IMG/VR virus record: IMGVR_UViG_3300036770_008730
Length of the DNA: 64,000 nucleotides
Reading direction: 5' to 3' (one strand)
DNA from: a virus
Taxonomy: Duplodnaviria; Caudoviricetes
Each line of letters begins with the position of its first letter. Positions within the stretch are counted from its first letter, which is position 1. This document shows positions 6,493 to 39,531 of the stretch, in pieces. Below the pieces are notes generated by a model that was given only the letters and a program-made list of their open reading frames with translations, was not told where the DNA came from and did no database searches. A program made the position numbers and the translations under genes.

Positions 6493-7071
6493 ATGGACAT
6501 TTGGTTTATTTCAGATACGCATTATGGGCACACAAACATTACCGGGTCTGATATTTCTCGTTGGAAAAGTGGATATAGAAACTTCAAAACACTTCATCAA
6601 ATGAATAAGGTTTTGGTAGATGGTATAAACAAATATGTCAAAGAAGATGATGTGCTTTATCATTTAGGTGATTGGAGTTTTGGAGGAGTTGATAACATAA
6701 AATTATTTAGAGATAGTTTGATATGTCAAAATATACACTTGATTAGAGGAAATCATGATGATAACATAGAAGGGTCTCAGATTGATTTATTTTCATCTGT
6801 TCAAGATGTACTAACTTTGAAAATTGGTAAAATGACTATTTTCCTTTCTCACTATTCACATCGTGTGTGGTTAGGTAGTCATAAAGGTGTTATTCATTTA
6901 TATGGACACAGTCATGGTTCAATTCCGGATATTGGAAAGTCAATGGATGTTGGTGTGGATGTTGCTTATAAAATGTTTGGTGAATATCGACCCTTTAATA
7001 TATCAGATATAAATAGAATTATGGAAAAGAGAGAAATACATAAAATTGATAGTCATGTTAGAGAAGAATAA
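6493..7071 (+). CDS. Calcineurin-like metallophosphoesterase
   Basis: SDTHYGH, HLGD, GNHD, HGHSH motifs. Confidence 0.88.
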   Translation: MDIWFISDTHYGHTNITGSDISRWKSGYRNFKTLHQMNKVLVDGINKYVKEDDVLYHLGDWSFGGVDNIKLFRDSLICQNIHLIRGNHDDNIEGSQIDLFSSVQDVLTLKIGKMTIFLSHYSHRVWLGSHKGVIHLYGHSHGSIPDIGKSMDVGVDVAYKMFGEYRPFNISDINRIMEKREIHKIDSHVREE

Positions 7072-7228
7072 TATAGTAAGTAAATTAGGTAAATCTAATT
7101 TGAAAATGTTAATAAATTCAATTTATGGTTCAATTCCAGGTGCTGATAATTTATGGCATAATATGTATAAAAAATATACTAGAACTGAATTTAGAAAACA
7201 AAAAATTAAAAACATTTTAAATGATTGA
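7055..7228 (+). CDS. Small protein with PolB motif-B-like segment and RxxKIxxIL tail
   Basis: KMLINSIYG followed by RKQKIKNIL; ORF overlaps both neighbours. Confidence 0.55.
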   Translation: MLEKNNIVSKLGKSNLKMLINSIYGSIPGADNLWHNMYKKYTRTEFRKQKIKNILND

Positions 7229-37028: not shown

Positions 37029-37145
37029 TACATTTAATTAATTTTTATTCTTTTTTATTTTTAATATATAGTTTATCAAAAATTATTAACCACTATGAGT
37101 AAAATTTGGGTAAGAATTGCCTGGGATGGTACTGCATGGTAATTT

Positions 37146-38440: not shown

Positions 38441-38490
38441 TAAACAACTGATGAAAACTTTTCTATAATAAAGAAAAGTTTTTTTGTTTT

Positions 38491-38991
38491 ATGAATAAAC
38501 CAAGTAAAGAAGATATAATAAACAAATGGTCATCTATTTTAGGACCTATGGGTATTACTGGATCTCAATTAGCTAATATATCTCAGTTAGTCGAAAATCA
38601 ATCAAATCACATTTTAGAAAATCAGTTAGAAAATGAAGAAGCTAGCATCGACTTTTCTTCTCTTCTACCAATTGCTATGAAAGTTGCTTCTAAAACAATC
38701 TCAAATGAATTAATATTTGCTTCTCAAGAAGAAATTGACCAAATTAAAAATAAAGTCCAATCTGAAAATCGTGATGGTAAAATTGAATCTATTGTTGAAG
38801 GTTCAGAGTTTACTGAAAAGAAATTAGAAGATGATGAAGAGTATAAAAAACTAATGAAGAAAGGAGTTTCACCTTTATCTGCTCCCTCTGGAGTATTACA
38901 TTATTTAGATTATACTTATAATGATAATTCAAAAACTAAAACACATAAGAAAACGAGAAGAGCTGGAAAAAAACATAAGAAAAATGGGTAA
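38491..38991 (+). CDS. Truncated major-capsid-protein-like (gp23 N-terminal) protein
   Basis: KWSSIL...LLPIAMKVASKTISNELI...VSPLSAPSGVLHYLDYTY; only 166 aa. Confidence 0.55.
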   Translation: MNKPSKEDIINKWSSILGPMGITGSQLANISQLVENQSNHILENQLENEEASIDFSSLLPIAMKVASKTISNELIFASQEEIDQIKNKVQSENRDGKIESIVEGSEFTEKKLEDDEEYKKLMKKGVSPLSAPSGVLHYLDYTYNDNSKTKTHKKTRRAGKKHKKNG

Positions 38992-39166
38992 ATTTGTGAG
39001 TCCTGGAGTTTATGTAAAAGAAGTTGATATCTCAACTTGGATAGTCTATAAAAATATTCAAAGAAAGAAAAAAATAGCGAAAATACTTGGAATTGATTAC
39101 TCTCCTAATGTGATTATAACTTCTACACCAAAAGGTGGTCTTGTTAACTTTCCTCAAATTTGGTAA
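38984..39166 (+). CDS. Mini-protein with tail-sheath N-terminal motif
   Basis: MGKFVSPGVYVKEVDIS; 60 aa from the ATG at 38984. Confidence 0.55.
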   Translation: MGKFVSPGVYVKEVDISTWIVYKNIQRKKKIAKILGIDYSPNVIITSTPKGGLVNFPQIW

Positions 39167-39198: not shown

Positions 39199-39531
39199 AT
39201 GTACAATGTGTATCTCATATGCTCTGAAATCGAAGGTAAAAATCTTTACAAAATTGGATACACTAGAAGAGAAATAGAGAAACGAATAAAAGAATTCAAA
39301 ACAGGAAACGCTTCTTCTTTTTATATTGTAGATTCATTTCAATCAGAATGGGGAACAAAAATCGAAGCGAGATTACACAGAGTTTTCAATCATAAAAAAA
39401 TAAGTGGTGAATGGTTTGATCTAGATGAAAATGATATAAAAGAGTTTTCTAAAATTTGTAATTCTCTACACTCTAATTTTAAATTAATATCAACTCAAAA
39501 TACTTATTATTTAGATAGAGGTGATTTTTAA
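39199..39531 (+). CDS. GIY-YIG / T5orf172-like nuclease domain protein
   Basis: VYLI...YKIGYT...EKRIKEFKTGN...IEARLH...GEWF. Confidence 0.8.
   Translation: MYNVYLICSEIEGKNLYKIGYTRREIEKRIKEFKTGNASSFYIVDSFQSEWGTKIEARLHRVFNHKKISGEWFDLDENDIKEFSKICNSLHSNFKLISTQNTYYLDRGDF

Follow-up and report, generated by a model that had tools for sequence, protein, structure and literature searches.

A free-standing copy of the major capsid protein N-terminus with an inserted module, a probable trans-acting mimic in relatives of uncultured huge phages

Why should a phage keep a short gene that repeats the beginning of its major capsid protein (MCP) and stops there? The question is raised by one locus in the 64,000-nucleotide stretch of AT-rich phage DNA analysed here (IMG/VR record IMGVR_UViG_3300036770_008730, Caudoviricetes; the whole stretch is called the window). 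An original prediction, made from the sequence of this DNA, had described a 166-aa open reading frame (ORF) at 38491-38991 that is built from capsid N-terminal motifs in a given order and ends in a basic tail. The ORF list and the sequence bear this out. The residues run KWSSIL, SQLVENQ, DFSSLLPIAMKVASKTISNELI, an insert with RDGKIESIV, GVSPLSAPSGVLHYLDYTY and the basic tail. The product, here called mini-MCP, is related to the N-terminal quarter of gp23-type MCPs, evolves under purifying selection and is probably (roughly 0.7) a mimic of the MCP N-arm that acts in trans, whatever the purpose. The gene and its parts are the following.

38491..38991, plus strand: the mini-MCP gene as given in the ORF list, with an ATG start and 166 aa, the stop being counted within the coordinates.
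38506..38619, plus strand: copy of the MCP propeptide, residues 6-43, with two helices and the motifs K-W-x-x-I-L ... E-N-Q-S-N-H-I-L-E.
38653..38721, plus strand: copy of the MCP N-arm, residues 55-77, F-S-S-L-L-P-I-A-M-K-V-A-S-K-T-I..., equivalent to the Gol-peptide region.
38722..38862, plus strand: inserted charged helical module of 47 aa, residues 78-124, with the core E-N-R-D-G-K-I-E-S-I-V, unaligned to the MCP.
38863..38919, plus strand: copy of the end of the N-arm and of the first beta-strand of the MCP core, residues 125-143, V-x-P-(M/L)-S-x-P-x-G-x-L-x-Y-L-D-Y-x-Y.
38932..38988, plus strand: basic tail, residues 148-166, H-K-K-T-R-R-A-G-K-K-H-K-K.

The capsid alignments draw on the MCPs of relatives, because the MCP gene of the phage itself lies outside the window. 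The MCPs matched by profile come from related uncultured phages of 635-735 kb and belong to Pfam PF07068 Gp23 (94 bits, scored on the 99% identical protein P0270). A profile of the mini-MCP family (38 sequences) aligned to the MCP profile (28 sequences) in hhalign with a probability of 99.8% and an E of 2.7e-28, mini residues 1-157 being placed on MCP residues 1-139 with one long unaligned insert. The same family aligned to T4 gp23 with a probability of 88.6% (E 2.6e-6), which confirms the likeness to the N-terminus of the T4 gp23 family put forward in the original prediction. The mini-family profile also retrieved the MCP N-termini of four further phages (E 1e-14 to 1e-17) and of Tenacibaculum phage PTm1 (E 6e-4), LR756504, LR756501 and LR756500 being among the phages so matched. 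Within one genome, the mini-protein of LR745206 and the 560-aa MCP of the same phage are 41% identical over 111 columns (E 7e-22). The PHROG profile phrog_138 (major head protein) matches mini-MCP with E 4.9e-4, residues 6-74 falling on profile positions 3-76, and matches the family member P0204 with E 3.7e-6. A Pfam search of the mini-MCP ORF gave no match at E<=1, PF07068 Gp23 included. Judged by these alignments, mini-MCP is a true paralogue of the N-terminal quarter of a gp23-type MCP.

The first copied segment, mini residues 6-43, aligns with MCP residues 8-44 and with residues 1-45 of T4 gp23, whose propeptide is removed at Glu65. It ends in an I-x-E site (I-L-E/N, residues 41-44) like the T4 prohead-protease motif; the cut site of T4 gp23 is S-F-L-T-E/A, and the MCPs of the clade carry an invariant I-N-E-N-A-Y. 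Of 56 diverse family representatives, 33 have an [IL]xE site somewhere between the KW motif and LLP. Further on, hhalign aligns residues 55-77 with MCP 86-107 and residues 125-143 with MCP 111-126. The N-arm pattern copied from the MCP is L-L-P-x-A-M-K-x-A-A-x-T-I-G-x-D-L-V-x-V-x-P and that of the strand P-x-G-x-L-x-Y-x-D-x-x-Y. In the mini family P60 and D140 are invariant, and L136, Y138 and Y143 nearly so. Residues 93-122 of T4 gp23 span the same block as the mini N-arm; we take these residues to be the Gol peptide, which is consistent with the T4 sequence.

Mini-MCP has lost a Gly/Ala-rich linker that takes up 30-45 residues in the MCP, and it has no counterpart to the MCP beyond about residue 139, so that only the first ~125-139 MCP residues are covered. 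At 166 aa, against 548-584 aa for the MCPs, mini-MCP is too short for capsomers. Its homology is to the propeptide and N-arm, and no match to the HK97 core (A and P domains) was found. Without the A-domain and most of the P-domain, mini-MCP cannot be a capsid subunit, as the original prediction had argued from the missing remainder of the HK97 fold. Despite its homology to Gp23-type MCPs it is not a capsid protein, as it has no HK97 core. A search of PDB sequences with the MCP-family profile gave no match at E<=0.001.

The copied segments are split by the insert, which occupies the loop between N-arm and strand. Asn93-Arg94 is invariant and Ile98 near-invariant across the family, and the core R94-D-G-K-I-E-S-I-V102 fits the pattern R-[DEN]-x-K-[IL]-x-x-[IL]-[ILVF]; in general form the module core reads N-R-D-x-K-I-x-S-I. 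The V-x-P motif precedes the module in 49 representatives and follows it in 21, the protein of the window being of the latter type. The interruption by an R-x-x-K-I-x-x-I helix, claimed from the sequence alone, has held up: the 47 residues do not align to the MCP, and a helix is predicted at 79-103. This helix is the best predicted element (pLDDT ~76) of the AlphaFold2 monomer model of mini-MCP, which has a pLDDT of 61 and a pTM of 0.25 and shows helices only, with no tertiary fold. The propeptide helices of the model, at 6-17 and 25-45, parallel those at 8-21 and 28-48 in a model of the MCP, the latter being built on a 28-row alignment with a mean pLDDT of 44 and too poor for fold searches. 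Mini-MCP is thus predicted to have no autonomous fold, as expected if it folds on a partner. A complex model of mini-MCP with the MCP of a relative (P0270) scored 0.00, which speaks neither for nor against binding, and a search of the ESM Atlas gave no usable match. A BLAST hint that the insert derives from the spine helix of the MCP was ruled out by hhalign (probability 1.4%). The same module is found in other MCP-fragment genes.

One explanation of such a gene is that it is a decaying partial duplicate of the MCP gene, without function and perhaps dragged along by the MUG113/T5orf172 element, a nuclease-like gene of mobile type that adjoins mini-MCP. The conservation data refute this reading, which we consider practically dead. 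The reading frame is intact in all 20 loci inspected, with no frameshift, and dN/dS is 0.20-0.35 in pairs with dS 0.18-0.87. The mini-MCP family comprises 411 clusters at 90% identity in a word-indexed search and 199 diverged clusters at 50% identity in an exhaustive search (E<=1e-3). Among the best 150 of the 199 clusters all representatives have 46-236 aa and none is a full-length MCP; 130 contain the module core and 81 keep the order N-arm/LLP, module, strand, many of the others being contig fragments. The family persists while the MCPs diverge to about 50% identity. Mini-MCP is therefore a real, selected gene and not the simple pseudogene that would have refuted the original prediction.

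The rate of change differs from that of the capsid protein. Within the same lineages mini-MCPs are 35-45% identical and MCPs 76-85%, so that mini-MCP evolves much faster than the MCP, around fixed motifs. Compared with an 816-kb metagenomic contig on which synteny is kept (L022), mini-MCP is 79% identical with an omega of 0.21, while the neighbouring gene g108 is 23% and the Laminin_G gene 27% identical.

The propeptide copy and its [IL]xE site raise the possibility of a packaged protein of the prohead core or interior. The propeptide would dock to the scaffold and be trimmed at I-L-E/N by the prohead protease, and the basic tail, which resembles DNA-binding tails, would lie on DNA, in the manner of the T4 internal proteins and peptides. 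An S77-like protease ORF is found 2 kb upstream of the MCP gene in relatives, and the corresponding PTm1 protein bears the annotation prohead scaffold and protease. The basic tail is conserved in the sublineage of the window and in LR745206, but overall it is present in only 14 of the 150 representatives. The propeptide part is present in 72, some of the remainder being contig fragments. The retained N-arm and strand, and the existence of other fragment genes, would be left unexplained, and a packaged internal protein is on the whole unlikely.

Mini-MCP belongs with a larger group of fragments of virion proteins that carry the same module or tag, and an explanation must therefore cover the MCP, scaffold and sheath fragments together. 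On two contigs (L019 3407-4537 and L017 3425-4477) there are three overlapping small genes with mini-MCP last, each consisting of a different MCP segment and the same module of 40-47 aa. The spine-helix gene of this triple reaches 29.9 bits with Pfam Gp23, above the cut-off, and 1.3e-7 with phrog_138. The C-terminal-strand gene has the module within a hairpin turn (hhalign 90.7%, E 1.2e-6). Jointly the triple holds most P-domain elements of the HK97 fold. LR745206 and LR756502 have spine-helix fragments of 67-70 aa ending R-R-x-N-S-I-N-K-I, and fragments of 130-137 aa that by eye resemble the Y-V-D-P-Y-M region of the MCP, followed by A-R-D-x-K-I-x-x-I-L. LR745206 further contains a second paralogue of the MCP N-region (E 1.7e-5) and two fragment genes of its 707-aa scaffold/protease ORF, at 460435-460686 and 194897-195382 (both minus strand), the former ending in the tag R-K-K-K-I-K-N-L-F. 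Paralogues of the MCP N-terminus that have no module occur in LR745206 (554784-555284, minus strand, 166 aa) and, as open frames (L062, L063), in LR756500 (172 aa) and LR756501 (200 aa); the clade has thus duplicated the MCP N-terminus more than once. A 262-aa gene in front of the triple in L019 was considered as a sliding clamp and found no PHROG support; a PIP-box-like reading of the tag remains an idea only.

The window itself holds a second fragment of a virion protein, a mini-sheath gene, directly downstream of mini-MCP. The features next to mini-MCP are the following.

38454..38490, plus strand: conserved upstream element with an inverted repeat AAAACTTTTC / GAAAAGTTTT, a TATAATAAA loop and a T-run, ending at the ATG of mini-MCP.
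38984..39166, plus strand: mini-sheath gene of 60 aa, whose ATG overlaps the last mini-MCP codons, translationally coupled.
39199..39531, plus strand: MUG113/T5orf172-domain gene, GIY-YIG-like, possibly a mobile nuclease (Pfam PF13455, E 1.2e-19; PF10544, E 9.4e-13).

The mini-sheath consists of a tail-sheath N-terminal motif, R-K-K-K-I-A-K-I-L and a second sheath-like segment, and matches the N-terminus of the 1283-aa sheath of a relative with E 3e-4. It follows mini-MCP in the window, in four contigs (L022, L023, L024 and L026) and in LR756502, and is 59% identical to its counterpart in L022 with a dN/dS of 0.43. In LR756501, the phage of 735 kb, a 456-aa ORF at ~497.2-498.6 kb (L061 1222-2592, minus strand) fuses a sheath N-terminal segment (E 1e-6) to a following MCP N-arm segment (68% over 31 residues, E 1e-8), and the two mimics therefore appear functionally linked.

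Some further observations concern these genes. In the comparison with L022, dS is 0.70-0.72 for mini-MCP and mini-sheath and 1.2-2.9 for neighbouring genes; the low values could be due to codon constraint from high expression or to more recent exchange. The N-terminal two thirds of the 456-aa ORF show, by eye, degenerate PolB-like motifs, and its end reads L-S-D-L-F-Q-G-L-F-E-E. A 57-aa ORF of the window (7055-7228) carries the tag, ending R-K-Q-K-I-K-N-I-L, and its reading as PolB motif B goes back to that kind of short motif only. Polymerase fragments were rejected for both, as Pfam finds no polymerase domain in the 57-aa or the 456-aa ORF.

The tag in question, R-[DEN]-x-K-[IL]-x-x-[IL]-[ILF], is found proteome-wide in the clade and appears to be undescribed. 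It was counted as C-terminal when at most 12 residues from the stop, and the genes of LR745206 are those of a crude ORF call. Among these ~938 crude genes the strict tag is C-terminal in 69 (0.09 expected) and a loose form in 107 (0.69 expected), a share of ~7-11%. The tagged proteins include a CCA-transferase-like protein of 339 aa and a protein of 731 aa. The motif occurs six times in the ORFs of the window, with 0.98 expected, and four of these are C-terminal (7193, 8080, 41198 and 44662). In LR745206 a late-type box, TATATATA/AATATATA, the type that precedes the MCP, the sheath and the virion genes of the window, lies within 80 nt upstream of 2 of the 107 tagged genes and of 230 of the 831 others. 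Several tagged genes that stand first in an operon have TATATTTG, the Bacteroidota TAnnTTTG box, directly 5' of the ATG. With late-type boxes rare and host-type boxes seen, the tag probably marks non-late, presumably early, proteins, the promoter classes being assigned from motifs only.

An early class would suit a weapon against related phages that co-infect the cell, as early expression is usual for exclusion functions. Dominant-negative fragments would then poison the head and tail assembly of the competitor, and it is the best conserved parts of MCP, scaffold and sheath that the fragments span. The copied motifs are, however, nearly identical to those of the phage's own MCP, so the phage would poison itself unless the fragments were removed in time, and evidence of self-resistance was not found. 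We hold this explanation to be quite improbable.

Mini-MCP is preceded by fibre and virion genes (Pfam Laminin_G_3), a gene of 319 aa and an acidic one of 108 aa; downstream, beyond the 60-aa ORF and the MUG113/T5orf172 gene, are a GT9-like glycosyltransferase on the opposite strand and a Rad50-like ATPase. Two uncultured huge phages, LR745206 (635 kb) and LR756502 (642 kb), are the closest records; in both the gene order is conserved and the mini-MCP homologues have 157 and 165 aa with ~40% identity. The full-length MCPs of these phages (560 and 571 aa) are encoded ~90 kb from the mini genes. The MUG113/T5orf172 neighbour holds the same position in both and in L022. Metagenomes in which the stretch of the window was detected come from 12 studies and cover subsurface, freshwater, lagoon and marine samples; no RNA data set was among them. 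A scan of IMG/VR gave no relatives, and a metagenome scan with the single protein gave 15 loci. Beyond the clade, relatives of the MCP infect Bacteroidota (Tenacibaculum, Prevotella, Flavobacterium, Chryseobacterium), and the hosts of the window's clade are predicted from these MCP relatives to be Bacteroidota as well.

In most of 18 family loci a TTTC-TATAAT-(A)A-GAAA core is found 5-25 nt upstream of the start. The element TTTC-TATAAT-A-GAAA frequently forms an inverted repeat, with a T-run behind it in the lineage of the window, and a simple scan reads TAAACA-17-TATAAT at this place as a sigma-70-like site. RNAalifold found no consensus structure in the element, whose 11-mer does not recur as a motif in the window. 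The element may be a promoter of mini-MCP, a leader hairpin, an attenuator or a weak terminator. A candidate late promoter, TAATATATA, has 21 sites in the window with 4.6 expected (e.g. 28533, 31274, 37062, 37145, 43489), situated before virion-type genes; in relatives, boxes of the related type TATATATA stand before the MCP and sheath genes. The sites at 37062 and 37145 stand before the 319-aa gene, so that mini-MCP may be read through from a late-type unit.

These observations bear on a further explanation, in which mini-MCP uses the copied arm-exchange elements to bind unassembled MCP or scaffold and so modulates or caps assembly. It would time or nucleate polymerisation or block its off-pathway forms, with the mini-sheath doing likewise for the sheath; alternatively the pair would bridge capsid and sheath at the neck. 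The N-arm in HK97-type capsids and the N-terminal strand in contractile sheaths reach between subunits, and it is these inter-subunit elements that have been copied. The explanation agrees with the retention of the propeptide and I-x-E site, with a gene that stands after fibre/virion genes behind late-type TAATATATA boxes, and with the translational coupling to the mini-sheath and the fusion in LR756501. It is also in line with the existence of scaffold/protease fragments, the S77-like protease ORF ahead of the MCP, the core-like conservation of an old and syntenic family, and the dS below that of the neighbours, which may reflect high expression. The timing is odd, as the genes that bear the shared tag lack late boxes and in some cases have host-type ones. 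In LR745206 and LR756502 the head module is ~90 kb away, and this and the lack of likeness to T4 gp22, gp67 and gp68 also weigh against an assembly modulator. An assembly modulator is a possibility to be taken seriously though without much confidence, and is nearly as good a reading as the decoy described below.

A capsid mimic is the best general description of mini-MCP in view of the MCP N-terminal homology and the truncation. To this extent the original prediction stands; none of the three roles that it offered (immune decoy, assembly modulator, inhibitor of related phages) is singled out by the evidence. The trans-acting N-arm mimic would be a soluble competitor that offers the N-terminal surfaces of the MCP to whatever reads them, and the inserted helix would couple it to a putative hub that binds the shared tag. 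Our tentative preference, at well below even odds, is for a decoy or shield that counters host factors able to recognise short conserved motifs in late virion proteins. Bacterial abortive-infection and pattern-recognition systems are, to our knowledge, triggered most commonly by capsid proteins. Defences linked to the capsid include Lit, CapRel and Avs7/8/10, and CBASS and Pycsar are linked to it through escape mutants. We know of no phage countermeasure that mimics the capsid protein itself, and literature searches gave no phage precedent for a capsid-protein mimic.

The lean towards a decoy comes first from the copied N-arm, which is the Gol equivalent. The Gol region of gp23 has 29 residues, and its binding to EF-Tu is stronger with ~100 residues of the first quarter of the protein; bound to EF-Tu, it triggers the Lit protease of E. 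coli (PMC3014915). Lit and CapRel recognise short MCP motifs, and the MCP-sensing complex of Avs7 incorporates EF-Tu (PMC13581612). By copying the Gol-equivalent segment mini-MCP resembles what a host defence reads. The lean is due, secondly, to the module, which lies within or beside the Gol-equivalent N-arm block and so interrupts or abuts the motif, and to the fact that the panel of fragments spans motifs of several virion proteins. Thirdly, the tag class is early-like and the family evolves fast around fixed motifs. A mini-MCP with an interrupted copy of the motif would occupy EF-Tu or the sensor, and the real capsid protein would then not set off abortive infection.

Several points weigh against the decoy. 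The mini-MCP family is old and syntenic throughout the clade and looks more like a core function than a patchy anti-defence gene. The retained propeptide, together with an [IL]xE site that ~60% of diverse members have, fits a role in the prohead. A fragment with the trigger motif could activate a Lit-like sensor instead of blocking it. The motif in mini-MCP is internal, ending 64 residues before the stop, and thus outside the ~12 residues by which a tag is counted as C-terminal. Neither a late-type nor a host-type box is found directly 5' of mini-MCP, and as the gene sits behind genes with TAATATATA boxes it may be late rather than early. Literature searches found no published phage decoy of its own capsid protein.

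If the decoy is extended to the whole set of fragments, the clade would run a panel of self-mimics against immune sensors that read motifs, or against an EF-Tu-dependent sensing of nascent capsid protein. Each mini-protein would present a single conserved segment taken from the virion proteins of the phage itself. The panel would comprise at least four capsid segments, scaffold/protease repeats and the sheath N-terminus, set on a common adaptor helix with which about a tenth of the proteome is tagged as well, and mini-MCP would be its N-arm or Gol-region member. We put this forward as a speculative proposal; if it is true, this would be the first virus to decoy its own structural proteins, and that conclusion is as doubtful as the panel. 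The mini-MCP family is widespread and easily recognised, and it retains the capsid segment that Lit reads. Whether decoy, assembly control or weapon, it puts a duplicate of the capsid gene to a new use. It offers a way into the study of a tag that is spread over the proteome, on ~10% of the genes in the largest known phages, and bears on the old suggestion that the N-terminus of gp23 binds EF-Tu in all T4-type phages.

Comparison with known systems shows where mini-MCP agrees with them and where it departs. The N-terminal quarter of T4 gp23 has the same order of motifs (K-W-x-P-x-L, E-N-Q, an L-x-E-type site, the N-arm V-x-P-M, and P-x-G), but there it is part of a subunit of 521-560 aa, whereas mini-MCP is a free-standing protein of 166 aa in which the linker is deleted, a 47-aa module stands in or beside the Gol-equivalent block and no HK97 core follows. 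T4 gp24 and other MCP paralogues that serve as vertex proteins are likewise capsid-gene duplicates that one genome has retained beside the original; gp24, however, is a capsid subunit with the whole HK97 fold, while mini-MCP keeps residues ~1-139. The T4 core and internal proteins (gp22, gp67, gp68) are similarly small, charged and helical with L/I-x-E sites, and some members have a basic tail. Against the mini family, gp22, gp67 and gp68 reach hhalign probabilities of only 0.35%, 1.6% and 0.07%, and unlike T4 core proteins mini-MCP is encoded outside the head cluster, in the window between fibre genes and the Rad50-like gene. The C-terminal tag of the clade is matched by the insert core N-R-D-G-K-I-E-S-I-V, although in mini-MCP the motif is internal and extended to a module of 47 aa. 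The poxvirus protein K3L is a pseudosubstrate that mimics eIF2-alpha, and plant microProteins are mimics in the form of truncated homologues. These are the nearest functional analogues, and mini-MCP resembles them in being a short paralogue that consists of the interaction surface only and would act by competition. K3L and the microProteins target host or cellular proteins, whereas mini-MCP copies a structural protein of the virus itself and adds an adaptor.

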